Assembly (NCBI GenBank): GCA_964016885.1
Contig: OZ024747.1
Coordinates: 90,396,001 to 90,460,000 of the forward strand
DNA from: Eledone cirrhosa
Taxonomy: Eukaryota
Length of the DNA: 64,000 nucleotides
Direction: 5' to 3'
Numbering within the stretch: the first letter of the stretch is position 1; every line of letters begins with the position of its first letter. This document shows, in pieces, positions 40,385 through 63,241 of this stretch. The notes beneath the pieces are model-generated. The model made no database searches and had not been told where the DNA came from. It saw only the letters and a program-made list of their open reading frames with translations. A program made the position numbers and the translations under genes.

Positions 40385-40408
40385 GTGCCTTTTCTCTTCA
40401 CCACCAAC

Positions 40409-43400
40409 ATGGCTATGCTAAGAGTAGGCTGTTTAAATGCGCGTGGCCTGGGCTCAACTTGGAAGCAAGCAATGCTTCTAAATGACCTCAGGTCACAACG
40501 TATAGATGTGATGGTTATTTGCGAGGCCCGGATCAGCAACGTGCGACAGCTGGCCCCCACCTTTGATGACTTTGAGATGCACGCATCTCTCTGTCAGCCC
40601 GGAGGTGGGGGTGGAGTTGTCGTTCTGCTGCAAAAACATCTGGGTCTCGCAACACAGATGGTACATTTGGACCCGGAGGGTCGACTAGTGGTTCTGGACC
40701 TTGGCAGTGGTAAAGGCGGAGCGTTTAGGTTGGTAGCCGCCTACGGCTCTTTCGGGTCAATGCGGCCGGACTTCTTCCATCGTCTGGAGACTTTTCTAGG
40801 GACGTCCCGCTCCTTGCTATTAGTGGGGGACTGGAATGGTATCCTAGATGCACGCTGGGACTACGTAGGGGCCTGCCCCGATAGAGAGGGGTGTAATAGC
40901 CTCAAAGGGTTAATCGGTCGATTTGACCTGGCCGATAGATATCGACTAGATTTTCCGACTGCGTCAACCTGGACTTGGGCAAATCGTAGCGGATCATCTA
41001 GGTCGTACCTAGATAGGTTCTTAGTTAGAATTAAGGATAAGGACTTTTTAAGTTGTCCAAAAATGCGCATGGTTGGCTATTCAGACCACAAATTAGTGAC
41101 CTGCATGGTCAACCTTGACAGAACTCATAGACAGGGCCCCGGTTACTGGAAGCTCAACTTGTCCTTGCCGGCAAGTAGAGCCTACAGGAATCGGATTAGT
41201 ACGTTAGTTAAGGAACGGTTGACTGGAGCGATCGTCAACAGCAGGTGGTGGGTATCTCTAAAGAGAGAGATTAGAGTAGTCTCGATAGAATTTAGTAAGG
41301 TTCTAGCTGCGGATAGGAATAGGAAGGAAAGGGAGCTAATAGATAGAGTAGAAGAGGCAATTAGAAGCGGCGACGTGGCCAGAGTGCTAGCGTCGAGAAC
41401 GGCTTTGAGCCAGTTTTTCGACGCGAAGCACGAAGGCTGCGTTGTCCGAAGTAAAATACGTGCTCTAGGGAACGAGGGGACCAAAGCTGTTAGCTGGGCC
41501 CGCGTGACAGAGGCCAACAGTGGAACTAAATCCACCATCCGGTCTTTGCGAGACCTGGATGGACGGGCGATTCTTGAGCCTAAGCAGATGTGTGAGGCCT
41601 TTCAAAGGCACTTTGCCCGACTGTTCGGGAGGGGCGGGGAGCCGGTTGGGAACGTGGACTTCGGTCCATACCTCGACGGCCTGCCGCGCCTCTCGGACAG
41701 GGAGGCGAAGTCCTGCGAGGAGCCGATTTCGGCCGCTGAGATAGAGGACGTGCTGAGCCAATGCGCAAAACGCAAATCCCCGGGTCTCGATGGTCTTCCT
41801 TACGAATTATATCTAGCTATGCCGGACTTGTTCCCCGATCTCCTCGAGGCGGTCTACTGCAACTGGCAACAGAACGGGAGAATTCCTTGTACTGTGACCA
41901 AGGGCGTAGTCACGCTAGTGAGGAAGGACGAGAACAAGGGGGACGAAATAAGTAACTTCAGGCCCATAACACTGCTAAATACAGAGTTACAGATTTTGGC
42001 CAAGGTGCTAGCAAAGAGGTTGGCGCTTGTCGTGGGCAACCTGGTGGGAGATGCGCAGACATGCGCTATCCCATCCAGGTCCATCCATGACAACCTCCAC
42101 CTCATGCGATACATCATAGAGAGGGTTGGGAACGAACCCGGCTTTGGTGGGGCTCTGATCAACTTGGATCAATCTAAGGCGTTCGATAGGGTCGACCATG
42201 GTTACCTGGATGCGGTGCTAGCGGCGGCAGGCTTCGGACCCGTTTTCAGGGGCTGGATCACTGCTATGCACAGCAGCCGCATCTGCTCTAGGGTCAAGGT
42301 GAACGGCTACCTCTCGGAGCCGTTCAAAGTCGCGCGGTCCATCCGACAAGGGTGCCTTCTCTCCTCCCTTCTGTATGTATTGACTCTCGAGCCACTACTG
42401 CGGAAGTTGGAGTTGTTGCAGGGCATCCCTTTGGAACCGGGATTGCGGAAAGCGGTGTCGGCCTACGCCGATGACGTGACAGTAATGGTGTCGACGGCCT
42501 CCGAAATCGAGGCGGTCGGCACCTTACTGGAGGAGTACGAAAAGTTCACAGGGGCTAAGCTGAACCGGGACAAGTCGATCGGTTTGCAACTCGGCACGTG
42601 GAGGGGCAGACCGATGCCCTCCGATAGCGTCGTCGGACGCTGGACGGAGGGCCCGGTGAAGTTGCTCGGGGTCTGGTTCGGACCGGACCTCCAGGTGGAG
42701 AAAAACTGGACGGAGGTTACGAACAGGGTGTTTGCACTGACCCAGAAGTGGGCCAGTTGCAAACTATCCCTGAAAGGTCGGGCGGAGGTGGCGAACACCT
42801 ACATAGCGTCCGTCATCTACTACCGCCTGACCGTAGTGCCCTGCCCAAGGGAAACCCTCACCAAGATGGAGCGCGCGCTCTTCCAATTCCTTTGGAAGAG
42901 GCGGGCTCCTATGGTGAGGAGATCCATCTGCTGTCAACACCCTTCGAAAGGAGGGCTGGGGATGCCGTGGCTAATGATGCGTAAACACGCATTAAGGCTA
43001 CGGCACCTCTACGTATTCCTCACCGGACAACCGGTGTGGGCCTCGTTTGTGAGACGAACCTTTCCCAGACTCGTCTCACTCACCGAGCTGCAATCCTGGG
43101 TCAAGCAAAGACCGAGAAAACTGGGCGCCTGGCACACTGAGTGTGCCCAGGCGCTCACCGCCCTCTGGCAGGCGGATCCGGTTATCAGTGGAGACTCCAC
43201 CGCAACATTCTATAGAGGGCTGGTACGCAGCAGGTGCGACGACGCCCTCGGAGAAGCCCTAGACATGGAGGAGGACGAACTGGCCAGCCTGTTCGGTAGG
43301 ACATTCAGCCCGGGACCTATGGACAACTTCCAGAAGTCCCTGGCCTGGCAGTGCTACCGAGGGGCTTTACCCGTTCGAGAAAGGCTCTACAGACACGGGC

Positions 43401-43846
43401 GCCCGGGTAGGGACCTCGCCAAAAAGATCTGTCCCAGATGCGTGTGCGACGAGGAAACCGTTGCACACGCATTAGTACACTGCTCGGGCGTAGCCGATCT
43501 GTGGGGCTATGTCGAACAACTGCTGTCAAGGGTGGGACCGATCCGGTTGACCACCGAGTCTATTGTAATGATCAAGCCGCCTCCCCCCTTCAAAGATGAA
43601 GCAGAGGCGGTGTTTCTGTGCGTAATAGCCATGGCGAAAGAGGTTGTATGGTGGACGCGTCTGAAAGGACTGAGGTCGGGCACCTTTCTCTCTGGCCAAC
43701 AACTGGTCCGTTTCTTCCGATATCATTTCGGAAGAAGGATCAGGATGGAGAGAGAGGTGCTGCACCCCAGCCGTTTCTATGAAAGATGGGTGAAAGTGGC
43801 GAGAATGGCCCGTGTGAATGGGCCTTCACTCTACATCAGACTATAG
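40409..43846 (+). CDS. ORF2: APE endonuclease + reverse transcriptase + C-terminal zinc finger (about 1145 aa from the first ATG), copy A
   Basis: APE motifs CLNARGL, ICE, GDWNG, YLDRF and SDH. Linker GPGYWKLN. RT motifs KSPGLDG, FRPITLLN, LDQSKAFDRVDH, RQGC(L)LS and YADD. Also GGLG and the C-terminal CPRC..ETVAHALVHC. First ATG at 40409 (AACATGG); the frame is open from 40385. Confidence 0.95.
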   Translation: MAMLRVGCLNARGLGSTWKQAMLLNDLRSQRIDVMVICEARISNVRQLAPTFDDFEMHASLCQPGGGGGVVVLLQKHLGLATQMVHLDPEGRLVVLDLGSGKGGAFRLVAAYGSFGSMRPDFFHRLETFLGTSRSLLLVGDWNGILDARWDYVGACPDREGCNSLKGLIGRFDLADRYRLDFPTASTWTWANRSGSSRSYLDRFLVRIKDKDFLSCPKMRMVGYSDHKLVTCMVNLDRTHRQGPGYWKLNLSLPASRAYRNRISTLVKERLTGAIVNSRWWVSLKREIRVVSIEFSKVLAADRNRKERELIDRVEEAIRSGDVARVLASRTALSQFFDAKHEGCVVRSKIRALGNEGTKAVSWARVTEANSGTKSTIRSLRDLDGRAILEPKQMCEAFQRHFARLFGRGGEPVGNVDFGPYLDGLPRLSDREAKSCEEPISAAEIEDVLSQCAKRKSPGLDGLPYELYLAMPDLFPDLLEAVYCNWQQNGRIPCTVTKGVVTLVRKDENKGDEISNFRPITLLNTELQILAKVLAKRLALVVGNLVGDAQTCAIPSRSIHDNLHLMRYIIERVGNEPGFGGALINLDQSKAFDRVDHGYLDAVLAAAGFGPVFRGWITAMHSSRICSRVKVNGYLSEPFKVARSIRQGCLLSSLLYVLTLEPLLRKLELLQGIPLEPGLRKAVSAYADDVTVMVSTASEIEAVGTLLEEYEKFTGAKLNRDKSIGLQLGTWRGRPMPSDSVVGRWTEGPVKLLGVWFGPDLQVEKNWTEVTNRVFALTQKWASCKLSLKGRAEVANTYIASVIYYRLTVVPCPRETLTKMERALFQFLWKRRAPMVRRSICCQHPSKGGLGMPWLMMRKHALRLRHLYVFLTGQPVWASFVRRTFPRLVSLTELQSWVKQRPRKLGAWHTECAQALTALWQADPVISGDSTATFYRGLVRSRCDDALGEALDMEEDELASLFGRTFSPGPMDNFQKSLAWQCYRGALPVRERLYRHGRPGRDLAKKICPRCVCDEETVAHALVHCSGVADLWGYVEQLLSRVGPIRLTTESIVMIKPPPPFKDEAEAVFLCVIAMAKEVVWWTRLKGLRSGTFLSGQQLVRFFRYHFGRRIRMEREVLHPSRFYERWVKVARMARVNGPSLYIRL

Positions 43847-44110
43847 GTGAGGAAGATGAAAGACCAAGGGAGCACCCCTTCTCTGTGCTCCTGAGGAGAA
43901 GGGTTGCACACTTTATTCGGGGGTGTGTGCGACCCCCCAAGGCGCCTCCTCTCTATTGAGGATTTTGTTAAAAATTTTATTTTTTGTTATATCTTATTTT
44001 ATTTTTATATTTTGTTATTGCCTCCTCCTTATTGAGGACGCCTTTTTGTGTAAACTCCCCCCTTTGTACTTGTCCCACTTTTGATGCCCTAGTGGCAAAT
44101 AAAAGAAATA
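43847..44110 (+). other. 3'UTR of copy A, with AATAAA at 44098-44103 and no poly(A) tail
   Basis: Follows the ORF2 TAG. Contains several stem-loops and a U-rich tract, and ends AATAAAAGAAATA. Confidence 0.8.
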
Positions 44111-47100
44111 TATCTTTATAAACACACTATGTCTCTCATTCCTTATCTCACCTCTATCTCTGTAAACACACTATGTCTCTCTTTCCTTATCTCACCTCTA
44201 TGTCTGTAAACACACTATGTCTCTCTTTCCTTATCTCACCTCTATCTTTATAAACACACTTTGTCTCCCTTTGCTTATCTCACCTCTATCTCTGTAAACA
44301 CACTATGTCTCCCTTTCCTTATCTCACCTCTATCTCTTTAAACACACTATGTCTCCCTTTCCTTATCTCACCTCTATCTCTGTAAACACACTATGTCTCC
44401 CTTTCCTTATCTCACCTCTATCTCTGTAAACACACTATGTCTCCCTTTCCTTATCTCACCTCTATCTCTGTAAACACACTATGTCTCCCTTTCCTTATCT
44501 CACCTCTATCTCTGTAAACACGCTATGTCTCTCTTTCCTTATCTCACCTCTATCTTTATAAACACACTATGTCTCCCTTTCATTATCTCACCTCTATCTC
44601 TGTAAACAACTATGTCTCTCTTTCCTTATCTCACCTCTATCTCTGTAAACACACTTTGTCTCCCTTTGCTTATCTCACCTCTATCTCTGTAAACACACTA
44701 TGTCTCTCTTTCCTTATCTCACCTCTATCTTTATAAACACACTATGTCTCCCTTTCCTTATCTCACCCCTATCTTTATAAACACATTATGTCTCTCATTC
44801 CTTATCTCACCTCTATCTTTGTAAACACACTATGTCCCCCTTTCCTTATCTCACCTCTATCTCTGTAAACACACTATGTCTCCCTTTCCTTATCTCACCT
44901 CTATCTCTGTAAACACACTATGTCTCCCTTTCATTATCTCACCTCTATCTCTGTAAACACACTATGTCTCCCTTTCCTTATCTCACCTCTATCTTTATAA
45001 ACACACTATGTCTCCCTTTCCTTATCTCACCTCTATCTTTGTAAACACACTATGTCTCCCTTTCCTTATCTCACCCCTATCTTTATAAACACACTATGTC
45101 TCTCTTTCCTTATCTCACCTCTATCTCTGTAAACACACTATGTCTCTCTTTCCTTATCTCACCTCTATCTCTGTAAACACACTATGTCTCTCTTTCCTTA
45201 TCTCACCTCTATCTCTGTAAACACACTATGTCTCCCTTTCCTTATCTCACCCCTATGTCTGTAAACACACTATGTCTCCCATTCCTTATCTCACCTCTAT
45301 CTTTGTAAACACACTATGTCTCCCTTTCCTTATCTCACCTCATCTTTGTAAACACACTATGTCTCCCTTTCCTTATCTCACCTCTATCTTTATAAACACA
45401 CTATATCTCCCTTTCCTTATCTCACCTCTATCTCTGTAAACACACTATGTCTCCCTTTCCTTATCTCACCTCTATCTCTGAAAACACACTATGTCTCCCT
45501 TTCCTTATCTCACCTCTATCTCTGTAAACACACTATGTCTCCCTTTCCTTATCTCACCTCTATCTCTGTAAACACATTATGTCTCTCTTTCCTTATCTCA
45601 CCTCTATCTCTGTAAACACACTATGTCTCCATTTCCTTATCTCACCTCTATCTCTGTAAACACATTATGTCTACCTTTCCTTATCTCACCTCTATCTGTA
45701 TAAACACACTATGTCTCCCTTTCCTTATCTCACCTCTATCTTTATAAACACACTATGTCTCCCTTTCCTTATCTCACCTCTATCTCTGTAAACACACTAT
45801 GTCTCCCTTTCCTTATCTCACCTCTATCTTTGTAAACACACTATATCTCCCTTTCCTTATCTCACCTCTATCTTTATAAACACACTATGTCTCCCTTTCC
45901 TTATCTCATCTCTATCTTTATAAACACACTATGTCTTCCTTTCCTTATCTCATCTCTATCTTTATAAACACACTATGTCTCCCTTACCTTATCTCACCCC
46001 TATCTTTATAAACACACTATGTCTCCCTTTCCTTATCTCACCTCTATCTTTATAAACACACTATGTCTCCCTTTCCTTATCTTACCTCTATCTCTGTAAA
46101 CACACTATGTCTCCCTTTCCTTATCTCACCTCTATCTCTGTAAACACACTATGTCTCTCTTTCCTTATCTCACCTCTATCTCTGTAAACACGCTATGTCT
46201 CTCTTTCCTTATCTCACCTCTATCTCTGTAAACACACTATGTCTCCCTTTCCTTATCTCACCTCTATCTCTGTAAACACACTATGTCTCCCTTTCCTTAT
46301 CTCACCTCTAACTCTGTAAACACACTATGTCTCCCTTTCCTTATCTCACCTCTAACTCTGTAAACACACTATGTCTCCCTTTCCTTATCTCACCTCTATC
46401 TCTGTAAACACACTATGTCTCCCTTTCCTTATCTCACCTCTATCTCTGTAAACACACTATGTCTCCCTTTCCTTATCTCACCCCTATGTCTGTAAACACA
46501 CTATGTCTCCCTTTCCTTATCTCACCTCTATCTTTGTAAACACACTATGTCTCCCTTTCCTTATCTCACCTCTAACTCTGTAAACACACTATGTCTCCCT
46601 TTCCTTATCTCACCTCTATCTCTGTAAACACACTATGTCTCCCTTTCCTTATCTCACCTCTAACTCTGTAAACACACTATGTCTCCCTTTCCTTATCTCA
46701 CCTCTATCTCTGTAAACACACTATGTCTCCCTTTCCTTATCTCACCTCTATCTCTGTAAACACACTATGTCTTCCTTTCCTTATCTCACCTCTATCTCTG
46801 TAAACACACTATGTCTCCCTTTCCTTATCTCACCTCTATCTCTGTAAACACACTATGTCTCCCTTTCCTTATCTCACCTCTATCTCTGTAAACACACTAT
46901 GTCTCTCTTTCCTTATCTCACCTCTATCTCTGTAAACACACTATGTCTCCCTTTCCTTATCTCACCTCTATCTTTGTAAACACACTATGTCTCCCTTTCC
47001 TTATCTCACCTCTATCTTTGTAAACACACTATGTCTCCCTTTCCTTATCTCACCTCTATCTTTATAAACACACTATGTCTCCCTTTCCTTATCTCACCTC

Positions 47101-50100
47101 TATCTTTATAAACACACTATGTCTCCCTTTCCTTATCTCACCTCTATTTTTATAAACACACTATGTCTCCCTTTCCTTATCTCACCTCTATCTTTGTAAA
47201 CACACTATGTCTCCCTTTCCTTATCTCACCTCTATCTTTATAAACACACTATGTCTCACTTTCCTTATCTCACCTCTATCTCTGTAAACACACTATGTCT
47301 CCCTTTCCTTATCTCACCTCTATCTTTATAAACACACTATGTCTCCCTTTCCTTATCTCACCTCTATCTCTGTAAACACACTATGTCTCCCTTTCCTTAT
47401 CTCACCTCTATCTTTATAAACACACTATGTCTCCCTTTCCTTATCTCACCTCTATCTTTATAAACACACTATGTCTTCCTTTCCTTATCTCACCTCTATC
47501 TCTGTAAACACACTATGTCTCCCTTTCCTTATCTCACCTCTATCTCTGTAAACACACTATGTCTTCCTTTCCTTATCTCATCTCTATCTCTGTAAACACA
47601 CTATGTCTCCCTTTCCTTATCTCACCTCTATCTCTGTAAACACACTATGTCTCCCTTTCCTTATCTCACCTCTATCTCTGTAAACACACTATGTCTCCCT
47701 TTCCTTATCTCACCTCTATCTTTATAAACACACTATGTCTCCCTTTCCTTATCTCACCTCTATCTCTGTAAACACACTATGTCTCCCTTTCCTTATCTCA
47801 CCTCTATCTCTGTAAACACACTATGTCTCTCTTTCCTTATCTCACCTCTATTTTTATAAACACACTATGTCTCCCTTTCCTTATCTCACCTCTATCTTTG
47901 TAAACACACTATGTCTCCCTTTCCTTATCTCACCTCTATCTCTGTAAACACACTATGTCTCCCTTTCCTTATCTCACCTCTATCTCTGTAAACACACTAT
48001 GTCTCTCTTTCCTTATCTCACCTCTATTTTTATAAACACACTATGTCTCCCTTTCCTTATCTCACCTCTATCTCTGTAAACACACTATGTCTCCCTTTCC
48101 TTATCTCACCTCTATCTCTGTAAACACACTATGTCTCCCTTTCCTTATCTCACCTCTATCTCTGTAAACACACTATGTCTCTCTTTCCTTATCTCACCTC
48201 TATTTTTATAAACACACTATGTCTCCCTTTCCTTATCTCACCTCTATCTTTATAAACACACTATGTCTCCCTTTCCTTATCTCACCCCTATCTTTATAAA
48301 CACACTATATCTCCCTTTCTTTATCTCACCCCTATCTTTATAAACACATTATGTCTCTCTTTCCTTATCTCACCTCTATCTTTGTAAACACACTATGTCT
48401 CCCTTTCCTTATCTCACTTCTATCTTTATAAACACACTATGTCTCCCTTACCTCATCTCACCCCTATCTTTATAAACACACTATGTCTCCCTTTCCTTAT
48501 CTCACCTCTATCTTTATAAACACACTATGTCTCCCTTTCCTTATCTCACCTCTATCTCTGTAAACACACTATGTCTCCCTTTCCTTATCTCACCTCTATC
48601 TCTGTAAACACACTATGTCTCCCTTTCCTTATCTCACCTCTATCTCTGTAAACACACTATGTCTCCCTTTCCTTATCTCACCTCTATCTCTGTAAACACA
48701 CTATGTCTCCCTTTCCTTATCTCACCTCTATCTTTGTAAACACACTATGTCTCTATTTCCTTATCTCACCTCTATCTCTGTAAACACACTATGTCTCCCT
48801 TTCCTTATCTCACCTCTATCTCTGTAAACACACTATGTCTCCCTTTCCTTATCTCACCTCTATCTTTGTAAACACACTATGTCTCCCTTTCCTTATCTCA
48901 CCTCTATCTTTATAAACACACTATGTCTCCCTTTCCTTATCTCACCTCTATCTTTATAAACACACTATGTCTTCCTTTCCTTATCTCACCTCTATCTCTG
49001 TAAACACACTATGTCTCCCTTTCCTTATCTCACCTCTATCTCTGTAAACACACTATGTCTCCCTTTCCTTATCTCACCTCTATCTCTGTAAACACACTAT
49101 GTCTCCCTTTCCTTATCTCACCTCTATCTCTGTAAACACACTATGTCTCCCTTTCCTTATCTCACCTCTATCTCTGTAAACACACTATGTCTCCCTTTCC
49201 TTATCTCACCTCTATCTCTGTAAACACACTATGTCTCCCTTTCCTTATCTCACCTCTATCTCTGTAAACACACTATGTCTCCCTTTCCTTATCTCACCTC
49301 TATCTCTGTAAACACACTATGTCTCCCTTTCCTTATCTCACCTCTATCTCTGTAAACACACTATGTCTCCCTTTCCTTATCTCACCTCTATCTCTGTAAA
49401 CACACTATGTCTCCCTTTCCTTATCTCACCTCTATCTCTGTAAACACACTATGTCTCCCTTTCCTTATCTCACCTCTATCTTTGTAAACACACTATGTCT
49501 CCCTTTCCTTATCTCACCTCTATCTTTATAAACACACTATGTCTCCCTTTCCTTATCTCACCTCTATCTTTATAAACACACTATGTCTTCCTTTCCTTAT
49601 CTCACCTCTATCTCTGTAAACACACTATGTCTCCCTTTCCTTATCTCACCTCTATCTCTGTAAACACACTATGTCTCCCTTTCCTTATCTCACCTCTATC
49701 TCTGTAAACACACTATGTCTCCCTTTCCTTATCTCACCTCTATCTCTGTAAACACACTATGTCTCCCTTTCCTTATCTCACCTCTATCTCTGTAAACACA
49801 CTATGTCTCCCTTTCCTTATCTCACCTCTATCTCTGTAAACACACTATGTCTCCCTTTCCTTATCTCACCTCTATCTCTGTAAACACACTATGTCTCCCT
49901 TTCCTTATCTCACCTCTATCTCTGTAAACACACTATGTCTCCCTTTCCTTATCTCACCTCTATCTCTGTAAACACACTATGTCTCCCTTTCCTTATCTCA
50001 CCTCTATCTCTGTAAACACACTATGTCTCCCTTTCCTTATCTCACCTCTATCTCTGTAAACACACTATGTCTCCCTTTCCTTATCTCACCTCTATCTCTG

Positions 50101-52775
50101 TAAACACACTATGTCTCCCTTTCCTTATCTCACCTCTATCTCTGTAAACACACTATGTCTCCCTTTCCTTATCTCACCTCTATTTTTATAAACACACTAT
50201 GTCTCCCTTTCCTTATCTCACCTCTATCTCTGTAAACACACTATGTCTCCCTTTCTTTATCTCACCTCTATCTTTGTAAACACACTATGTCTCCCTTTCC
50301 TTATCTCACCTCTATCTTTATAAACACACTATGTCTCCCTTTCCTTATCTCACCTCTATCTCTGTAAACACACTATGTCTCCCTTTCCTTATCTCACCTC
50401 TATCTTTGTAAACACACTATGTCTCTATTTCCTTATCTCACCTCTATCTCTGTAAACACACTATGTCTCCCTTTCCTTATCTCACCTCTATCTCTGTAAA
50501 CACACTATGTCTCCCTTTCCTTATCTCACCTCTATCTTTGTAAACACACTATGTCTCCCTTTCCTTATCTCACCTCTATCTTTATAAACACACTATGTCT
50601 CCCTTTCCTTATCTCACCTCTATCTTTATAAACACACTATGTCTTCCTTTCCTTATCTCACCTCTATCTCTGTAAACACACTATGTCTCCCTTTCCTTAT
50701 CTCACCTCTATCTCTGTAAACACACTATGTCTCCCTTTCCTTATCTCACCTCTATCTCTGTAAACACACTATGTCTCCCTTTCCTTATCTCACCTCTATC
50801 TTTGTAAACACACTATGTCTCCCTTTCCTTATCTCACCTCTATCTCTGTAAACACACTATGTCTCCCTTTCCTTATCTCACCTCTATCTTTATAAACACA
50901 CTATGTCTTCCTTTCCTTATCTCACCTCTATCTCTGTAAACACACTATGTCTCTCATTCCTTATCTCACCTCTATCTTTGTAAACACACTATGTCTCCCT
51001 TTCCTTATCTCACCTCTATCTCTGTAAACACACTATGTCTCCCTTTCCTTATCTCACCTCTATCTCTGTAAACACACTATGTCTCCCTTTCCTTATCTCA
51101 CCTCTATCTCTGTAAACACACTATGTCTCCCTTTCCTTATCTCACCTCTATCTCTGTAAACACACTATGTCTCCCTTTCCTTATCTCACCTCTATCTCTG
51201 TAAACACACTATGTCTCCCTTTCCTTATCTCACCTCTATCTCTGTAAACACACTATGTCTCCCTTTCCTTATCTCACCTCTATCTCTGTAAACACACTAT
51301 GTCTCCCTTTCCTTATCTCACCTCTATCTCTGTAAACACACTATGTCTCTCTTTCCTTATCTCACCTCTATTTTTATAAACACACTATGTCTCCCTTTCC
51401 TTATCTCACCTCTATCTCTGTAAACACACTATGTCTCCCTTTCTTTATCTCACCTCTATCTTTGTAAACACACTATGTCTCCCTTTCCTTATCTCACCTC
51501 TATCTTTATAAACACACTATGTCTCCCTTTCCTTATCTCATCTCTATCTTTATAAACACACTATGTCTCCCTTTCCTTATCTCATCTCTATCTTTATAAA
51601 CACACTATGTCTTCCTTTCCTTATCTCACCTCTATCTCTGTAAACACACTATGTCTCCCTTTCCTTATCTCACCTCTATCTTTATAAACACACTATGTCT
51701 CCCTTTCCTTATCTCACCTCTATCTCTGTAAACACACTATGTCTCCCTTTCTTTATCTCACCTCTATCTTTGTAAACACACTATGTCTCTCTTTCCTTAT
51801 CTCACCTCTATCTTTATAAACACACTATGTCTCCCTTTCCTTATCTCATCTCTATCTTTATAAACACACTATGTCTCCCTTTCCTTATCTCACCTCTATC
51901 TCTGTAAACACACTATGTCTCCCTTTCCTTATCTCACCTCTATCTCTGTAAACACACTGTCTCCCTTTCCTTATCTCACCTCTATCTTTATAAACACACT
52001 ATGTCTCCCTTTCCTTATCTCATCTCTATCTTTATAAACACACTATGTCTCCCTTTCCTTATCTCACCTCTATCTTTATACACACACTATGTCTCCCTTT
52101 CCTTATCTCATCTCTATCTTTATAAACACACTATGTCTCCCTTTCCTTATCTCATCTCTATCTTTATAAACACACTATGTCTTCCTTTCCTTATCTCACC
52201 TCTATCTCTGTAAACACACTATGTCTCCCTTTCCTTATGTCACCTCTATCTATGTAAACACACTATGTCTCCCTTTCCTTATCTCACCTCTATCTCTGTA
52301 AACACACTGTCTCCCTTTCCTTATCTCACCTCTATCTCTGTAAACACACTGTCTCCCTTTCCTTATCTCACCTCTATCTTTATAAACACACTATGTCTCC
52401 CTTTCCTTATCTCACCTCTATCTCTGTAAACACACTATGTCTCCCTTTCCTTATCTCACCTCTATCTCTGTAAACACACTGTCTCCCTTTCCTTATCTCA
52501 CCTCTATCTTTATAAACACACTATGTCTCCCTTTCCTTATCTCACCTCTATCTCTGTAAACACACTATGTCTCCCTTTCCTTATCTCACCTCTATCTCTG
52601 TAAACACACTATGTCTCTCTTTCCTTATCTCACCTCTATTTTTATAAACACACTATGTCTCCCTTTCCTTATCTCACCTCTATCTCTGTAAACACACTAT
52701 GTCTCCCTTTCCTTATCTCACCTCTATCTTTGTAAACACACTATGACTCCCTCTCCTTATCTCACCTCTATCTTT
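44111..52775. repeat. 44-bp satellite, block 2 (197 monomers plus 7 bp)
   Basis: Same monomer and orientation as block 1. The length of 8665 equals 197x44 + 7 - 10, where the 10 nt are visible deletions (about 44628, 45341, 51959, 52309, 52351, 52481). Confidence 0.98.
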
Positions 52776-52993
52776 CTCTGGGATGGACACACGCGTATAA
52801 CTTGCTGAGTAAGTTCTGTTTAAATTTCTATAGAAATTCTTGTCTGATAACTTTAATTTTTGTACCATTTTGTAGAGGGACTGCCAGGTCAAACTTTGAT
52901 CTGGTCAGTCTCTCAAAATATTCTACGCCTTTAGGCGAAATAGTTAAACAAAAAAAAAAAGTTTTTTCTTGTTGAAAAGTCAATATTTTTTAA
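52776..52993 (+). promoter_or_regulatory. 5'UTR of copy B (possible internal promoter; structured)
   Basis: Lies between the satellite junction and the ORF1 ATG. Contains palindrome AATTTCTATAGAAATT (52823-52838) and a long hairpin (52875-52914). The promoter role is inferred only from L1-clade biology. Confidence 0.55.
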
Positions 52994-54784
52994 ATGGCCG
53001 AAGCTTCTTCACCAAAATTCGAAGGAGGAAAGGGGAAGATGAACTTACAGCTTCCTCCTGCCACTGTCACAGTAGCAGAGGTCAAGAAGATAGGTCAGCC
53101 AGAGGAAGAATTCTCTCCACCTGTTAACCGACAACTTGACGTTGCCATGGCAACAACCCAAAGAACCAGCAGCAACAGCAACAACAACAACAATGCGACG
53201 GACGAAAACAACACCAATAACAATAACAACAACAACAACAACAAGACCAATAACGGTGACAACAACAACAATGATAACAACAACACCACCAACGACAACA
53301 ACAACACAAACAAACAAAATTTCTCCTTCGCCGAGACGACAAGGAAAACCCTCGACTATCTGCCAGTAGATATAACAAAAGCGAAGGAGCTACTGGCGGA
53401 TGCGAAAAAATATATAGTGTACGGGGAAAATGGTTCATTCACAATCCATTCCCCCCCGGAACTAAAAAGCCAGAGACTCCTAAACACGGTCATGTTTAGG
53501 ACAATCTCGAACAAAAGTAAAAAACCAGCTCAACCATCACAGAGCGAGATAGAGCTGGTTTTAAAAGACGTCATGAAGGACATCACCTTCATTCAGAAGG
53601 ATAGACTCTACGGGAGTCTATCCATTCTCATGAAGGACAGGGACACAGCAGTGAAACTGTCCATCAAACCAATCACATCCACCGCATACACCTTCTACCC
53701 TACGTACATGGGTAGAAGAACACAAAAAATAAAAATCCACACCATCCTGCCGATTATGGACATATGGTGGGTTTTGACAGGTTTTCTGGACCTGGAGGAT
53801 GACATGCTGGTGTCCATGGGAAAGGCATCGGGTGACGCGTTTAGTGGAACGAGCCTCGAACTTGTAGTTCAAATGAGGCCCGAAAGGATCGCCCAGATCC
53901 CTGAACGCGTCATACTGGATGATCTAACCTTCATCAACATTACCGTTGAGGGTAGACGGCCCTCGTGTTACCTCTGCGGAACCAGAGGTCACCTGAGGGC
54001 TGTCTGTCCCCAACTTAATAAGAAAACCCCAATCCTGCCTACACCACCAACAACTGCACAACCAACACAATCACCACAACTACCACTACAAAAACAACCA
54101 CCACAGCTCAAACCAAAACAAAACAATGTCCAACCCATCCCCTCCACTCAAAAAACAAAAACAATTTCCAAAACACCCGTACCGCAAACACAACCCGAAA
54201 ATATACCCCTCCCCTCCAACGCGGAAGATGACCCTAGTTCGTCGTCAGACGAGGAGGAGCACTTCCACACAATCAAAAGAAAAAAAAGAAAACACACCTC
54301 AGACACACAAATGAAAAAAAACCCTCCCCAAAACATAACACTGACACCAACACAAAAGAGCTCACAACAGCAAACAAAAAACACCACACAAAAACAAAAA
54401 CATGCATACACATACATAAATACAAGAAACAAAAAACTGTTAAACATTGTGTACAACAACAATCTAATAAAAACACAAGGGCCTAACTTCACCCAGGCAG
54501 GGGATTTCCCCCACCTCAAAATGATTAAGGCCCCACAGGACACCTATAAAACTTTAAAAAACAATTTTAAAGAGGACGTGGGTCCCCCCTGCGTCGGGCC
54601 CATTAACCGCGTCCTCCTAAAAAACTATCCCACCCCCTCCCCAAACACCCTCACAACTCCAAGCTCCCCAACCACACAACACACTGATGCCCCCACACTT
54701 CCACAAACCACCACCCCACCCAACAACCCATCCCCCACCCTAATGGAAATTGTGCAGCCCGATACCCGGGACGTAGAGAGGTAA
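52994..54784 (+). CDS. ORF1 (gag-like nucleic-acid-binding protein, 596 aa) of copy B
   Basis: ATG in strong context (AAAATGG-like, TAAATGG). Contains an Asn-rich tract, the zinc knuckle CYLCGTRGHLRAVC (CX2CX4HX4C), a Pro/Gln/Thr-rich region, and acidic SSSSDEEE followed by basic KRKKRK (NLS-like). Its position upstream of APE-RT is typical of L1/Tx1 ORF1. Confidence 0.88.
   Translation: MAEASSPKFEGGKGKMNLQLPPATVTVAEVKKIGQPEEEFSPPVNRQLDVAMATTQRTSSNSNNNNNATDENNTNNNNNNNNNKTNNGDNNNNDNNNTTNDNNNTNKQNFSFAETTRKTLDYLPVDITKAKELLADAKKYIVYGENGSFTIHSPPELKSQRLLNTVMFRTISNKSKKPAQPSQSEIELVLKDVMKDITFIQKDRLYGSLSILMKDRDTAVKLSIKPITSTAYTFYPTYMGRRTQKIKIHTILPIMDIWWVLTGFLDLEDDMLVSMGKASGDAFSGTSLELVVQMRPERIAQIPERVILDDLTFINITVEGRRPSCYLCGTRGHLRAVCPQLNKKTPILPTPPTTAQPTQSPQLPLQKQPPQLKPKQNNVQPIPSTQKTKTISKTPVPQTQPENIPLPSNAEDDPSSSSDEEEHFHTIKRKKRKHTSDTQMKKNPPQNITLTPTQKSSQQQTKNTTQKQKHAYTYINTRNKKLLNIVYNNNLIKTQGPNFTQAGDFPHLKMIKAPQDTYKTLKNNFKEDVGPPCVGPINRVLLKNYPTPSPNTLTTPSSPTTQHTDAPTLPQTTTPPNNPSPTLMEIVQPDTRDVER
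53170..53308 (+). repeat. Imperfect (AAC)n microsatellite encoding poly-Asn in ORF1
   Basis: Runs of AACAACAAC translate as SNSNNNNN...NNNNNNNNN. Confidence 0.9.
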
Positions 54785-54808
54785 GTGCCTTTTCTCTTCA
54801 CCACCAAC

Positions 54809-57800
54809 ATGGCTATGCTAAGAGTAGGCTGTTTAAATGCGCGTGGCCTGGGCTCAACTTGGAAGCAAGCAATGCTTCTAAATGACCTCAGGTCACAACG
54901 TATAGATGTGATGGTTATTTGCGAGGCCCGGATCAGCAACGTGCGACAGCTGGCCCCCACCTTTGATGACTTTGAGATGCACGCATCTCTCTGTCAGCCC
55001 GGAGGTGGGGGTGGAGTTGTCGTTCTGCTGCAAAAACATCTGGGTCTCGCAACACAGATGGTACATTTGGACCCGGAGGGTCGACTAGTGGTTCTGGACC
55101 TTGGCAGTGGTAAAGGCGGAGCGTTTAGGTTGGTAGCCGCCTACGGCCCTTTCGGGTCAATGCGGCCGGACTTTTTCCATCGTCTGGAGACTTTTCTAGG
55201 GACGTCCCGCTCCTTGCTATTAGTGGGGGACTGGAATGGTATCCTAGATGCACGCTGGGACTACGTAGGGGCCTGCCCCGATAGAGAGGGGTGTAATAGC
55301 CTCAAAGGGTTAATCGGTCGATTTGACCTGGCCGATAGATATCGACTAGATTTTCCGACTGCGCCAACCTGGACTTGGGCAAATCGTAGCGGATCATCTA
55401 GGTCGTACCTAGATAGGTTCTTAGTTAGAATTAAGGATAAGGACTTTTTAAGTTGTCCAAAAATGCGCATGGTTGGCTATTCAGACCACAAATTAGTGAC
55501 CTGCATGGTCAACCTTGACAGAACTCATAGACAGGGCCCCGGTTACTGGAAGCTCAACTTGTCCTTGCCGGCAAGTAGAGCCTACAGGAATCGGATTAGT
55601 ACGTTAGTTAAGGAACGGTTGACTGGAGCGATCGTCAACAGCAGGTGGTGGGTATCTCTAAAGAGAGAGATTAGAGTAGTCTCGATAGAATTTAGTAAGG
55701 TTCTAGCTGCGGATAGGAATAGGAAGGAAAGGGAGCTAATAGATAGAGTAGAAGAGGCAATTAGAAGCGGCGACGTGGCCAGAGTGCTAGCGTCGAGAAC
55801 GGCTTTGAGCCAGTTTTTCGACGCGAAGCACGAAGGCTGCGTTGTCCGAAGTAAAATACGTGCTCTAGGGAACGAGGGGACCAAAGCTGTTAGCTGGGCC
55901 CGCGTGACAGAGGCCAACAGTGGAACTAAATCCACCATCCAGTCTTTGTGAGACCTGGATGGACGGGCGATTCTTGAGCCTAAGCAGATGTGTGAGGCCT
56001 TTCAAAGGCACTTTGCCCGACTGTTCGGGAGGGGCGGGGAGCCGGTTGGGAACGTGGACTTCGGTCCATACCTCGACGGCCTGCCGCGCCTCTCGGACAG
56101 GGAGGCGAAGTCCTGCGAGGAGCCGATTTCGGCCGCTGAGATAGAGGACGTGCTGAGCCAATGCGGCAAACGCAAATCCCCGAGTCTCGATGGTCTTCCT
56201 TACGAATTATATCTAGCTATGCCGGACTTGTTCCCCGATCTCCTCGAGGCGGTCTACTGCAACTGGCAACAGAACGGGAGAATTCCCTGTACTGTGACCA
56301 AGGGCGTAGTCACGCTAGTGAGGAAGGACGAGAACAAGGGGGACGAAATAAGTAACTTCAGGCCCATAACACTGCTAAATACAGAGTTACAGATTTTGGC
56401 CAAGGTGCTAGCAAAGAGGTTGGCGCTTGTCGTGGGCAACCTGGTGGGAGATGCGCAGACATGCGCTATCCCGTCCAGGTCCATCCATGACAACCTCCAC
56501 CTCAAGCGATACATCATAGAGAGGGTTGGGAACGAACCTGGCTTTGGTGGGGCTCTGATCAACTTGGATCAATCTAAGGCGTTCGATAGGGTCGACCATG
56601 GTTACCTGGATGCGGTGCTAGCGGCGGCAGGCTTCGGACCCGTTTTCAGGGGCTGGATCACTGCTATGCACAGCAGCCGCATCTGCTCTAGGGTCAAGGT
56701 GAACGGCTACCTCTCGGAGCCGTTCAAAATCGCGCGGTCCATCCGACAAGGGTGCCCTCTCTCCTCCCTTCTGTATGTGTTGACTCTCGAGCCACTACTG
56801 CGGAAGTTGGAGTTGTTGCAGGGCATCCCTTTGGAACCGGGATTGCGGAAAGCGGTGTCGGCCTACGCCGATGACGTGACAGTAATGGTGTCGACGGCCT
56901 CCGAAATCGAGGCGGTCGGCACCTTACTGGAGGAGTACGAAAAGTTCACAGGGGCTAAGCTGAACCGGGACAAGTCGATCGGTTTGCAACTCGGCACGTG
57001 GAGGGGCAGACCGATGCCCTCCGATAGCGTCGTCGGACGCTGGACGGAGGGCCCGGTGAAGTTGCTCGGGGTCTGGTTCGGACCGGACCTCCAGGTGGAG
57101 AAAAACTGGGCGGAGGTTACGAACAGGGTGTTTGCACTGACCCAGAAGTGGGCCAGTTGCAAACTATCCCTGAAAGGTCGGGCGGAGGTGGCGAACACCT
57201 ACATAGCGTCCGTCATCTACTACCGCCTGACCGTAGTGCCCTGCCCAAGGGAAACCCTCACCAAGATGGAGCACGCGCTCTTCCAATTCCTTTGGAAGAG
57301 GCGGGCTCCTATGGTGAGGAGATCCATCTGCTGTCAACACCCTTCGAAAGGAGGGCTGGGGATGCCGTGGCTAATGATGCGTAAACACGCATTAAGGCTA
57401 CGGCACCTCTACGTATTCCTCACCGGACAACCGGTGTGGGCCTCGTTTGTGAGACGAACCTTTCCCAGACTCGTCTCACTCACCGAGCTGCAATCCTGGG
57501 TCAAGCAAAGACCGAGAAAACTGGGCGCCTGGCACACTGAGTGTGCCCAGGCGCTCACCGCCCTCTGGCAGGCGGATCCGGTTATCAGTGGAGACTCCAC
57601 CGCAACATTCTATAGAGGGCTGGTACGCAGCAGGTGCGACGACGCCCTCGGAGAAGCCCTAGACATGGAGGAGGACGAACTGGCCAGCCTGTTCGGTAGG
57701 ACATTCAGCCCGGGACCTATGGACAACTTCCAGAAGTCCCTGGCCTGGCAGTGCTACCGAGGGGCTTTACCCGTTCGAGAAAGGCTCTACAGACACGGGC

Positions 57801-58246
57801 GCCCGGGTAGGGACCCCGCCAAAAAGATCTGTCCCAGATGCGTGTGCGACGAGGAAACCGTTGCACACGCATTAGTACACTGCTCGGGCGTAGCCAATCT
57901 GTGGGGCTATGTCGAACAACTGCTGTCAAGGGTGGGACCGATCCGGTTAACCACCGAGTCTATTGTAATGATCAAGCCGCCTCCCCCCTTCAAAGATGAA
58001 GCAGAGGCGGTGTTTCTGTGCGTAATAGCCATGGCGAAAGAGGTTGTATGGTGGACGCGTCTGAAAGGACTGAGGTCGGGCACCTTTCTCTCTGGCCAAC
58101 AACTGGTCCGTTTCTTCCGATATCATTTCGGAAGAAGGATCAGGATGGAGAGAGAGGTGCTGCACCCCAGCCGTTTCTATGAAAGATGGGTGAAAGTGGC
58201 GAGAATGGCCCGTGTGAATGGGCCTTCACTCTACATCAGACTATAG
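54809..58246 (+). pseudogene. ORF2 of copy B, interrupted by a nonsense codon
   Basis: CGA in copy A (41549-41551) is TGA at 55949-55951, splitting the frame into the 388-aa and 752-aa ORFs. The QGCPLS and YADD motifs are retained. Confidence 0.93.
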
Positions 58247-58510
58247 GTGAGGAAGATGAAAGACCAAGGGAGCACCCCTTCTCTGTGCTCCTGAGGAGAA
58301 GGGTTGCACACTTTTTTCGGGGGTGTGTGCGACCCCCCAAGGCGCCTCCTCTCTATTGAGGATTTTGTTAAAAATTTTATTTTTTGTTATATCTTATTTT
58401 ATTTTTATATTTTGTTATTGCCTCCTCCTTATTGAGGACGCCTTTTTGTGTAAACTCCCCCCTTTGTACTTGTCCCACTTTTGATGCCCTAGTGGCAAAT
58501 AAAAGAAATA
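58247..58510 (+). other. 3'UTR of copy B, with AATAAA at 58498-58503
   Basis: Matches the copy A 3'UTR except for one substitution (58315 vs 43915). Confidence 0.8.
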
Positions 58511-61500
58511 TATCTTTATAAACACACTATGTCTCCCTTTCCTTATCTCACCTCTATCTTTGTAAACACACTATGACTCCCTTTCCTTATCTCACCTCTA
58601 TCTTTGTAAACACACTATGTCTCCCTTTCCTTATCTCACCCCTATGTCTGTAAACACACTATGTCTCTCTTTCCTTATCTCACCTCTATCTTTGTAAACA
58701 CACTATGTCTCCCTTTCCTTATCTCACCTCTATCTTTGTAAACACACTATGTCTCCCTTTCCTTATCTCACCTCTATCTTTATAAACACACTATGTCTCC
58801 CTTTCCTTATCTCACCTCTATCTTTATAAACACACTTTGTCTCCCTTTGCTTATCTCACCTCTATCTCTGTAAACACACTATGTCTCCCTTTCCTTATCT
58901 CGCCTCTATCTTTGTAAACACACTATGTCTCCCTTTCCTTATCTCACCTCTATCTTTGTAAACACACTATGTCTCCCTTTCCTTATCTCACCTCTATCTT
59001 TATAAACACACTATGTCTCCCTTTCCTTATCTCATCTCTATCTTTATAAACACACTATGTCTCCCTTTCCTTATCTCATCTCTATCTTTATAAACACACT
59101 ATGTCTCCCTTTCCTTATCTCACCTCTATCTTTGTAAACACACTATGTCTCCCTTTCCTTATCTCATCTCTATCTTTATAAACACACTATGTCTCCCTTT
59201 CCTTATCTCACCTCTATCTTTGTAAACACACTATGTCTCCCTTTCCTTATCTCACCCCTATGTCTGTAAACACACTATGTCTCCCTTTCCTTATCTCACC
59301 TCTATCTTTGTAAACACACTATGTCTCCCTTTCCTTATCTCACCTCTATCTTTGTAAACACACTATGTCTCCCTTTCCTTATCTCACCTCTATCTTTATA
59401 AACACACTATGTCTCCCTTTCCTTACCTCATCTCTATCTTTATAAACACACTATGTCTCCCTTTCCTTATCTCACCTCTATCTTTATAAACACACTATGT
59501 CTCCCTTTCCTTATCTCATCTCTATCTTTATAAACACACTATGTCTCCCTTTCCTTATCTCACCTCTATCTTTATAAACACACTATGTCTCCCTTTCCTT
59601 ATCTCATCTCTATCTTTGTAAACACACTATGTCTCCCTTTCCTTATCTCACCCCTATGTCTGTAAACACACTATGTCTCCCTTTCCTTATCTCACCTCTA
59701 TCTCTGTAAACACACTATGTCTCCCTTTCCTTATCTCACCTCTATCTCTGTAAACACACTATGTCTCCCTTTCCTTATCTCACCTCTATCTCTGTAAACA
59801 CACTATGTCTCCCTTTCCTTATCTCACCTCTATCTCTGTAAACACACTGTCTCCCTTTCCTTATCTCACCTCTATCTTTATAAACACACTATGTCTCCCT
59901 TTCCTTATCTCACCTCTAACTCTGTAAACACACTATGTCTCCCTTTCCTTATCTCACCTCTATCTCTGTAAACACACTATGTCTCCCTTTCCTTATCTCA
60001 CCTCTATCTCTGTAAACACACTATGTCTCCCTTTCCTTATCTCACCTCTATCTTTGTAAACACACTATGTCTCTATTTCCTTATCTCACCTCTATCTCTG
60101 TAAACACACTATGTCTCCCTTTCCTTATCTCACCTCTATCTCTGTAAACACACTATGTCTCCCTTTCCTTATCTCACCTCTATCTTTGTAAACACACTAT
60201 GTCTCCCTTTCCTTATCTCACCTCTATCTTTATAAACACACTATGTCTCCCTTTCCTTATCTCATCTCTATCTTTATAAACACACTATGTCTTCCTTTCC
60301 TTATCTCACCTCTATCTTTGTAAACACACTATGTCTCCCTTTCCTTATCTCACCTCTATCTCTGTAAACACATTATGTCTCTCTTTCCTTATCTCACCTC
60401 TATTTTTATAAACACACTATGTCTCCCTTTCATTATCTCACCTCTAACTCTGTAAACACACTATGTCTCCCTTTCCTTATCTCACCTCTAACTCTGTAAA
60501 CACACTATGTCTCCCTTTCCTTATCTCACCTCTATCTCTGTAAACACACTATGTCTCCCTTTCCTTATCTCACCTCTATCTCTGTAAACACACTATGTCT
60601 CCCTTTCCTTATCTCACCTCTATCTCTGTAAACACACTGTCTCCCTTTCCTTATCTCACCTCTATTTTTATAAACACACTATGTCTCCCTTTCCTTATCT
60701 CACCTCTATCTCTGTAAACACACTATGTCTCCCTTTCCTTATCTCACCTCTATCTCTGTAAACACACTATGTCTCCCTTTCCTTATCTCACCTCTATCTC
60801 TGTAAACACACTATGTCTCTCTTTCCTCATCTCACCTCTATCTCTGTAAACACACTATGTCTCCCTTTCCTTATCTCACCTCTATCTCTGTAAACACACT
60901 ATGTCTCTCTTTCCTCATCTCACCTCTATCTCTGTAAACACACTATGTCTCCCTTTCCTTATCTCACCTCTATCTCTGTAAACACACTATGTCTCCCTTT
61001 CCTTATCTCACCTCTATCTCTGTAAACACACTATGTCTCTCTTTCCTCATCTCACCTCTATCTCTGTAAACACACTATGTCTCCCTTTCCTTATCTCACC
61101 TCTATCTCTGTAAACACACTATGTCTCCCTTTCCTTATCTCACCTCTAACTCTGTAAACACACTGTCTCCCTTTCCTTATCTCACCTCTATCTTTATAAA
61201 CACACTATGTCTCCCTTTCCTTATCTCATCTCTATCTTTATAAACACACTATGTCTTCCTTTCCTTATCTCACCTCTATCTCTGTAAACACACTATGTCT
61301 CCCTTTCCTTATCTCACCTCTATCTTTATAAACACACTATGTCTCCCTTTCCTTATCTCATCTCTATCTTTATAAACACACTATGTCTTCCTTTCCTTAT
61401 CTCACCTCTATCTTTGTAAACACACTATGTCTCCCTTTCCTTATCTCATCTCTATCTTTATAAACACACTATGTCTTCCTTTCCTTATCTCACCTCTATC

Positions 61501-63241
61501 TTTGTAAACACACTATGTCTTCCTTTCCTTATCTCACCTCTATCTTTATAAACACACTATGTCTCCCTTTCCTTATCTCATCTCTATCTTTATAAACACA
61601 CTATGTCTTCCTTTCCTTATCTCACCTCTATCTCTGTAAACACACTATGTCTCCCTTTCCTTATCTCACCTCTATCTTTATAAACACACTATGTCTCCCT
61701 TTCCTTATCTCATCTCTATCTTTATAAACACACTATGTCTTCCTTTCCTTATCTCACCTCTATCTTTGTAAACACACTATGTCTCCCTTTCCTTATCTCA
61801 CCTCTATCTCTGTAAACACACTATGTCTCTCTTTCCTTATCTCACCTCTATCTCTGTAAACACACTATGTCTCTCTTTCCTTATCTCACCTCTATCTCTG
61901 TAAACACACTATGTCTCCCTTTCCTTATCTCACCTCTATCTCTGTAAACACACTATGTCTCCCTTTCCTTATCTCACCTCTATCTCTGTAAACACACTAT
62001 GTCTCTCTTTCCTTATCTCACCACTATTTTTATAAACACACTATGTCTCCCTTTCCTTATCTCACCTCTATCTCTGTAAACACACTATGTCTCCCTTTCC
62101 TTATCTCACCTCTATCTTTGTAAACACACTATGTCTCCCTTTCCTTATCTCACCTCTATCTTTATAAACACACTATGTCTCCCTTTCCTTATCTCATCTC
62201 TATCTTTATAAACACACTATGTCTCCCTTTCCTTATCTCACCTCTATCTTTATAAACACACTATGTCTCCCTTTCCTTATCTCACCTCTATCTTTATAAA
62301 CACACTATGTCTCCCTTTCCTTATCTCATCTCTATCTTTATAAACACACTATGTCTCCCTTTCCTTATCTCACCTCTATCTTTATAAACACACTATGTCT
62401 CCCTTTCCTTATCTCACCTCTATCTTTATAAACACACTATGTCTCCCTTTCCTTATCTCACCTCTATCTTTATAAACACACTATGTCTCCCTTTCCTTAT
62501 CTCACCTCTATCTCTGTAAACACACTATGTCTCCCTTTCCTTATCTCATCTCTATCTTTATAAACACACTATGTCTCCCTTTCCTTATCTCACCTCTATC
62601 TCTGTAAACACACTATGTCTCCCTTTCCTTATCTCACCTCTAACTCTGTAAACACACTATGTCTTCCTTTCCTTATCTCACCTCTATCTCTGTAAACACA
62701 CTATGTCTCCCTTTCCTTATGTCACCTCTATCTCTGTAAACACACTATGTCTCCCTTTCCTTATCTCACCTCTATCTCTGTAAACACACTATGTCTCTCT
62801 TTCCTTATCTCACCTCTATCTCTGTAAACACACTCTGTCTCTCTTTCCTTATCTCACCTCTATCTCTGTAAACACACTATGTCTCCCTTTCCTTATCTCA
62901 CCTCTAACTCTGTAAACACACTATGTCTCCCTTTCCTTATCTCACCTCTATCTCTGTAAACACACAATGTCTCCCTTTCCTTATCTCACCTCTGTCTCTG
63001 TAAACACACTATGTCTCCCTTTCCTTTTCTCAGCTCTACCTTTATAAACACACTATGTCTCCCTTTCCTCATCTCACCTCTATCTCTGTAAACACACTAT
63101 GTCTCCCTTTCCTTATCTCACCTCAATCTCTGTAAACACACTATGTCTCCCTTTCCTTATCTCACCTCTATCTTTGTAAACACACTATGTCTCCCTTTCC
63201 TTATCTCACCTCTATCTCTGTAAACACACTATGTCTCCCTT
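58511..63241. repeat. 44-bp satellite, block 3 (about 107 monomers), right end of the array
   Basis: Same monomer. The last few units are more degenerate, and the block stops mid-monomer at ..ATGTCTCCCTT. Confidence 0.98.

Follow-up and report, generated by a model that had tools for sequence, protein, structure and literature searches.

How does a rare satellite monomer come to stand on both sides of a retrotransposon, through the insertion itself or through turnover of the surrounding array? The question arises in a 64,000-nt window of Eledone cirrhosa DNA (contig OZ024747.1; the window is the whole stretch analysed, and positions count within it), where a 44-bp satellite array (1..63241, + strand; 1186 whole monomers scored) is broken by two copies of one long interspersed nuclear element (LINE), copy A (38872..44110, +) and copy B (52776..58510, +). 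An earlier note on this DNA read the flanks of copy B as a 95-bp target duplication, made by a second-strand cut two monomers away and partly overwritten by satellite sequence at the 3′ end of the element RNA, and named a 7-bp duplication inside a pre-existing monomer pair as the alternative. The doubled monomer is real and the element is of an ordinary kind; what is unusual comes down to one copy and one base, and the odds on its origin are about even, leaning slightly towards the array. Second-strand cutting in LINE insertion is described as poorly understood (PMC6895275), and one model assigns every LINE a fixed cutting distance of its own (PMC4245944). A LINE that prefers one site within a short, polymorphic satellite offers a natural test, as a distance rule should give one duplication length and a sequence rule should give 44-bp steps. 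Variants in the monomer heads would also show which bases came from RNA; one copy is insufficient to decide the nick rule.

On the + strand of the window, the variant in question, TATGACTCC, has only two occurrences (start positions 52742 and 58572), compared with 949 occurrences of the common form TATGTCTCC on that strand. Its distinguishing A (52746 and 58576) occupies monomer position 22 and was carried by 2 of the 1186 monomers, one on each side of copy B, as the earlier note had stated. Along the + strand, the site consists of monomers P and Q, the heptamer TATCTTT, the element, and monomers Y, Q′ and R. P (52681..52724), the second-last whole monomer to the left, has the head TATCTCTG (C-head) and differs at positions 6 and 8 only from Y (58511..58554), the first monomer downstream, whose head is TATCTTTATA (A-head). 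Q (52725..52768) and Q′ (58555..58598) share the rare A, and Q alone has a window-unique C at position 29 (52753). TATCTTT (52769..52775), which forms the 5′ junction of copy B, comprises monomer positions 1-7, and the first seven bases of R (58599..58642; head TATCTTTG, 43C) close the apparent duplication.

Over two monomers plus seven bases, the flanks (52681-52775 and 58511-58605) were identical at 92 of 95 positions, with mismatches at offsets 6, 8 and 73; the first two fall at positions 6 and 8 of the leading monomer and the third at position 29 of the one after it. This confirms the earlier count, including two mismatches in the first 10 nt. We rejected the match itself as evidence, because 366 of 1069 element-free 95-nt comparisons made 88 bp apart had 3 or fewer mismatches. 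Flank similarity is thus at chance level, leaving the single rare A as the sole informative base. The minimal duplicated block is 52746-52775 (30 bp). An exact match of 64 nt (52689-52752 = 58519-58582) can be followed across the left-only C at 52753 to the junction, so that the longest seam-free block on the left is 87 bp (52689..52775, +; 1 mismatch to 58519-58605). The duplicated block at copy B is therefore 30-87 bp and not necessarily 95 bp, a length that takes two more mismatches. A literal 95-bp duplication, as first proposed, did not hold: its copies differ at 3 positions, two of which are common head variants. Duplications of 139 bp or more at copy B were rejected (8 or more mismatches), as was a 51-bp duplication both at copy A (4 mismatches) and at copy B (3, including the rare A itself).

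Copies A and B meet the monomer at identical phase at both ends (2/2; about 1 in 44 each by chance), with TATCTTT at 38865-38871 forming the 5′ junction of copy A. They are two independent insertions with different flanks. The possibility that they represent one segmental duplicate was rejected, because their flanks and 5′ ends differ. At copy A the apparent target duplication is TATCTTT only, and at 95 bp 12 mismatches were found; of the lengths that the earlier note had expected in other copies (7, 51 and 95 bp), copy A fits 7 bp and neither 51 nor 95 bp. With copy A removed, its flanks restore the order (27A,41T)(25T)(26T,28A), which is present 3 times element-free. Because copy B keeps the 5′ phase of copy A, a long duplication at copy B requires a second nick chosen by sequence.

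We give about an even chance to an origin of the doubled monomer in the array's own slippage or unequal exchange. In this scenario, a target-preferring L1-group LINE would insert by target-primed reverse transcription at the head of a 44-bp monomer and would leave TATCTTT on both sides at each insertion; the heptamer is present at 2/2 copies, and the nick positions are presumed. A two-monomer slippage or unequal exchange, either before the insertion or later at its flank, would have made the pair, with copy B sitting in its middle monomer. Element-free pairs of the same X-Q-Y-Q-Z shape were found at 19738/19826 and 33059/33147, which gives the earlier note's alternative two precedents, and, among variants of at most 40 copies, 12 element-free two-monomer pairs were counted when only 44-nt monomers were considered. 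The same-phase junctions of two insertions and the 7-bp repeat of copy A also favour this origin. The left-flank order of copy B, (4T,8A)(C-head)(G-head), was followed by an A-head monomer in 3/3 element-free cases, which would fit a native head for Y. In published work, it is mostly the element that determines how long the duplication is.

Turnover of the array points in the same direction. A run search listed 24 runs, 20 of them with part of the element, all as collapsed contigs and none of them RNA; four of the 24 were aligned on 52737-58554, and the results from them cover 40 of 295 other-letter rows, 19 of 1098 loose ends and 15 of 104 joints. At no fewer than 10 of the 24 positions where copies A and B differ, these contigs read like copy A, so that copy B has at least 10 private changes (at least 0.19%). 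The array has a 2819-bp exact duplicate (offset 2772) and has thus turned over since copy B arrived, and the flanks of copy B may for this reason no longer be as they were at insertion. Copying and homogenisation after insertion, with variants gathering at insert boundaries, have been described for ATHILA in CEN180 (bioRxiv 10.1101/2021.05.30.446350). If the array made the pair, the pattern at copy B is an unremarkable by-chance outcome of satellite turnover, and it advises caution in reading duplication lengths in tandem repeats.

Several observations weigh against an origin in the array. Straddling of copy B by a variant found twice in the window is uncommon and above chance: sites straddled by another rare variant within 2 monomers numbered 2/1186 for doubletons, 5 for variants of up to 3 copies and 16 for variants of up to 13 copies, so that the pre-existing pair, for all its precedents, requires a rare placement (2-16 of 1186 sites). 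Two-monomer windows with a window-unique variant, which would yield the pattern if an insertion duplicated them, were more frequent (35/1185 overall and 27/436 beyond 33 kb, counts that include copy B's own 52753). Comparison of the 35/1185 unique-variant windows with the 2/1186 doubleton-straddled sites gave a likelihood ratio of about 14 (range 7-27) for an insertion-made over an array-made pair, the denominator of which is one doubleton pair. The block G-head, 43C, 4G was preceded by a C-head in 15/16 element-free cases, which are not independent and include many mutual copies; these predecessors would fit an original order P-Q-R, with the head of Y foreign. Finally, the odd head lies exactly at the 3′ end of the element. 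In 12/12 element-free two-monomer pairs the middle head was derivable from its neighbours, and under either origin of the pair that of Y is not, since a simple 88-bp duplication of P and R leaves at least one difference. Without an RNA tail, an array-made pair therefore needs one extra change.

The weight of these counts depends on how often LINEs make long duplications. L1 in DT40 cells had duplications of >20 bp in 0/37 inserts (PMC4245944) and ZfL2-2 in 1/25 inserts (PMC2666801), whereas one HeLa data set for L1 contains many (PMC4245944). With a prior of 2-25%, a long duplication received 0.45 and an array-made pair 0.52; the values were 0.22 and 0.73 with a prior of 1-5%, and 0.66 and 0.32 with a prior of 10-30%. 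When the null included commoner variants, which are less well matched, the long duplication received 0.33 and 0.32 and the array-made pair 0.65. Two inputs to these odds are measured frequencies and most others are guesses.

The head of Y bears on both origins. We think it rather probable that 8 or more bases after copy B were written from RNA. The 264-nt 3′ untranslated region contains AATAAA (58498..58503, +; the same in copy A at 44098), which ends 7 nt before the satellite, and cleavage normally occurs 10-30 nt after such a signal. Cleavage is thus expected within the first monomer, which has CA dinucleotides 19-24 nt from the AATAAA and then a T-rich stretch. Poly(A) was absent from the 3′ end of both copies. 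With no terminator beyond the AATAAA, the element RNA would probably be cleaved and polyadenylated only after some 3-23 nt of satellite. It could then prime from its target-like stretch, so that no poly(A) would be copied and the first downstream head might be derived from RNA. If read-through occurs, poly(A) should be found in transcripts 3-23 nt or more inside the satellite and not directly after AAGAAATA; if such a tail is the rule, the first downstream head should be TATCTTTA in nearly all copies. A contig of one run (X1, depth 5) leaves the locus at 58520, ten bases into the head, and enters the element at 55477 through 13 other letters, a joint that is weak support for a tail and may be a chimera.

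Part of the earlier argument for this tail failed. TATCTTTATA directly follows both copies (44111 and 58511), as had been noted, but it is not rare, heading 236 of the 1186 monomers and 27 of the 80 around copy B. We rejected copy A as evidence for a tail because 24 of 25 other (26T,28A) monomers begin with TATCTTTATA, which makes its downstream head native-like; the tail is supported instead by the geometry of the AATAAA and the underivable head at copy B, neither of which the earlier note had cited. Against an RNA-written head, the 3/3 succession described above suggests that the native successor of copy B's left flank would also be an A-head monomer. The consensus nick site of L1-type elements is TT/AAAA, and its sole one-mismatch match in the three common monomers is TT/ATAA, at positions 7/8 of the A-head type. 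If the element cuts there, the A at position 8 would be a preferred target base and only TATCTTT would be RNA-written, which counts against a tail of 8 or more bases. The tail and a literal 95-bp duplication are mutually exclusive: if positions 1-8 were written from RNA, the distance from nick to nick is at most 87 bp and the 7+44n lengths are only apparent.

An insertion-made duplication is a live reading, to which we give somewhat less than an even chance, and in this respect the second cut two monomers away proposed in the earlier note was not placed ahead of its own alternative. The first nick would fall at position 9 or beyond in P, the read-through tail would anneal to the primer and supply positions 1-8, and the second nick would fall at position 7 two monomers downstream. 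The true duplication would be 30-87 bp and appear as 7+88, with the C at 52753 arising later; the age of copy B would allow about 0.2-0.4 new changes in two 87-bp copies. A single event would then account for the rare A on both sides, for both mismatches within the first 8 nt and for the retained 5′ phase; the likelihood ratio given above also favours it. The implied empty site (C-head, G-head, 43C, 4G) would have the common native order (15/16), and long duplications are known from R9 (126 bp; cited in PMC6895275) and from L1 in HeLa cells (PMC4245944). On the other hand, copy A lacks a long duplication, and only the shared phase speaks for a sequence-determined second nick, although a constant stagger of 7 bp would account for that phase just as well. 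The order (4T,8A)(C)(G)(43C) occurred in 0/3 element-free cases, and the TT/ATAA match would make the A at position 8 a target base rather than a product of the tail. With a prior of 1-5%, the support for an insertion-made duplication falls to about 0.2.

Its extension to the whole family appears unlikely to us, namely that the satellite head sequence, and not distance, determines where both nicks fall, with duplications stepped by the monomer (apparent lengths of 7, 51, 95 bp and so on) and an RNA tail rewriting the first head after every copy. If this rule were true, each insertion could enlarge the array by entire monomers and propagate a single head type, and the two nick positions of all copies in the genome would be readable from a polymorphic array.

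Templated 5′ bases provide a third explanation, which we consider very improbable. Here the duplication would be 7 bp, as at copy A, and 44 nt of the downstream flank (58562-58605) would have been copied upstream during 5′ joining. The C at 52753 would be an error of that copying, and the downstream order A-head, 22A, 43C would be the original target. No tail is needed and one mismatch only has to be explained. Extra 5′ bases of ZfL2-2 come largely from flanking DNA (PMC4245944), and R2 5′ junctions can have target copies of 21-26 bp, from upstream or downstream, with substitutions (PMC3774820). However, the array does not resemble the empty site that this implies: (4T,8A)(C-head) was followed by an A-head in 0/6 element-free cases, an A-head preceded the block G-head, 43C, 4G in 1/16, and the left G-head monomer already fits the native order. 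An artefact of assembly or polishing, in which two haplotypes or two copies supplied the flanks or a base call passed from one flank to the other, is similarly remote: assembly is difficult for satellite arrays whose 5-kb inserts are 99.5% identical and none of the listed contigs spans the stretch, but 949 other monomers keep the common base, the private C of the left copy, seven bases from the rare A, is missing from the right copy, and higher-order repeats elsewhere are resolved to single bases.

The element is an APE-type non-LTR (long terminal repeat) retrotransposon of the L1 group. Copy B is apparently full length (5735 bp) without poly(A), copy A is 5′-truncated inside open reading frame (ORF) 1, and the two differ by 24 substitutions over 5239 aligned bp. 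ORF1 (52994..54784, +) encodes 596 amino acids with a CX2CX4HX4C knuckle at residue 325; the Pfam zf-CCHC match was below the cut-off (E 0.051), and CCHC clusters were nearest by Atlas features (0.92). ORF2 (54809..58246, +) encodes an APE endonuclease, a reverse transcriptase (RT) and a C-terminal zinc motif and is interrupted in copy B by a stop at codon 381. The ORF2 of copy A is open (1145 amino acids) and matched RVT_1 (2.4e-25) and Exo_endo_phos (1.8e-07) above the Pfam cut-off and zf-RVT (5.7e-05) below it. ORF2 has the motifs NARG, GDWN, SDH and YADD, with CX2C..HX4C at residue 1008. Among solved structures, human L1 ORF2p was the best of 10 matches in all (E 8e-46 over residues 8-857), and R2 proteins matched at 7e-18 or weaker. 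All L1-group features are thus present: APE and RT in ORF2, an upstream ORF1 with a knuckle, a C-terminal cysteine motif in ORF2, and 5′ truncation. The element may be Tx1-like. When homologue names were looked up for the clade, 75 of 76 homologues were unnamed, none of the cluster members read was named, and none was a named Tx1 sequence. A (CAA)n-type tract of about 44 units (53173-53306) encodes a poly-Asn stretch in ORF1, and the 5′ truncation of copy A falls within it. The first 5 bases of copy B (52776-52780), CTCTG, equal positions 4-8 of a C-head monomer, and a contig of another run (X5) starts at 52777. The RNA 5′ end of copy B may begin in the upstream satellite of its donor, leaving a target copy of 4-5 bases similar to those found where R2 joins its target on the 5′ side.

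Both long duplications and read-through tails have precedents, separately, in other LINEs. Tx1-clade LINEs (Tx1L, Keno, Kibi and Koshi) have, like the present element, two ORFs, APE and RT, a CCHC knuckle in ORF1 and repeated use of one site in a tandem repeat; elements of the clade prefer transposons, small nuclear RNA genes and microsatellites, and satellite targets are marked 'Sat' in the tree legend (PMC4494074). In contrast, the target here is the head of a 44-bp satellite (TATCT motif), in an element only putatively of this clade. R9 differs in using a restriction-like endonuclease, and its duplication length is fixed. Like the long duplication proposed at copy B, that of R9 in bdelloid rotifers arises through a second nick far downstream (cited in PMC6895275). 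Distant second nicks of L1 (PMC4245944) and ZfL2-2 (PMC2666801) in cultured cells give duplications of tens to hundreds of bases that are not tied to a repeat period, whereas the length here would step by the monomer, in 1 of 2 copies. The uniform ribosomal DNA target of R2Ol hides overwriting, which the polymorphic heads here could show. Read-through target RNA is known for R1Bm as for R2Ol. In R2Ol, the 3′ end of the RNA contains target sequence that anneals to the nicked target, and 100 nt of such sequence raises insertion efficiency from 12% to 96% (PMC6530143). Imperfect copies of the flanking target stand beside the 5′ end of R2 (PMC3774820) and ZfL2-2 (PMC4245944); these are 21-26 bp long and often common to most copies, whereas the copy at B would be 44 bp and is absent from the 5′-truncated copy A. 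ATHILA elements in CEN180 are LTR elements with short duplications, and the available part of that account (bioRxiv 10.1101/2021.05.30.446350) shows no monomer-stepped duplication. A search of the open literature, which did not extend to subscription journals or Repbase reports, found no account of target duplications whose length rises in steps of one satellite monomer; bioRxiv 10.64898/2026.01.17.700053, also consulted, yielded nothing of bearing.

The element family is abundant, with 12 to 21850 contigs per run in the four aligned runs. Among the 40 other-letter rows, 19 loose ends and 15 joints listed, none bore on 58516, 58518 or 52746, and none of the 19 loose ends of relatives ended in this satellite. 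These 19 include (TATC)n-like neighbours, at 58117 in run X5 and at 57662 in run X1, and the family may target the TATCT motif more widely than the 44-bp satellite. Copies A and B share letters unlike those of most aligned contigs at 53056, 53091, 54321 and 57874; they form a sub-lineage, or the runs come from a related population or species. Pattern scans gave no match for the element 3′ end in metagenome contigs and none for the satellite in viral contigs and prokaryote genomes, and of 78 pattern matches to the ORF2 C-terminus in metagenome contigs 0 were confirmed.

Across the array, about 60% of heads were C-heads, 21% A-heads and 14% G-heads. Higher-order duplications are nested within positions 1-33000; segments 63, 91 and 99 monomers apart match exactly over 2819, 2434 and 2131 bp, respectively, and only 4 of 749 monomers in this part carry window-unique variants. 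Such variants cluster at array edges: 5 of the 19 carrier monomers are among the last 10 (62817-63168) before a third, unrelated element, with which the array ends. Another lies at 38689 (region 38689-38776), 4 monomers to the left of copy A. The third element (63242-64000) matched no Pfam family and may be Penelope-like. By Atlas features it scored 0.96 with clusters, one of which has PF26215 HTH_animal in 19% of its members. It starts in the middle of an RT region with a YVDD-type motif and 237 open codons, and it enters the satellite at monomer position 29/30, a phase unlike that of copies A and B.

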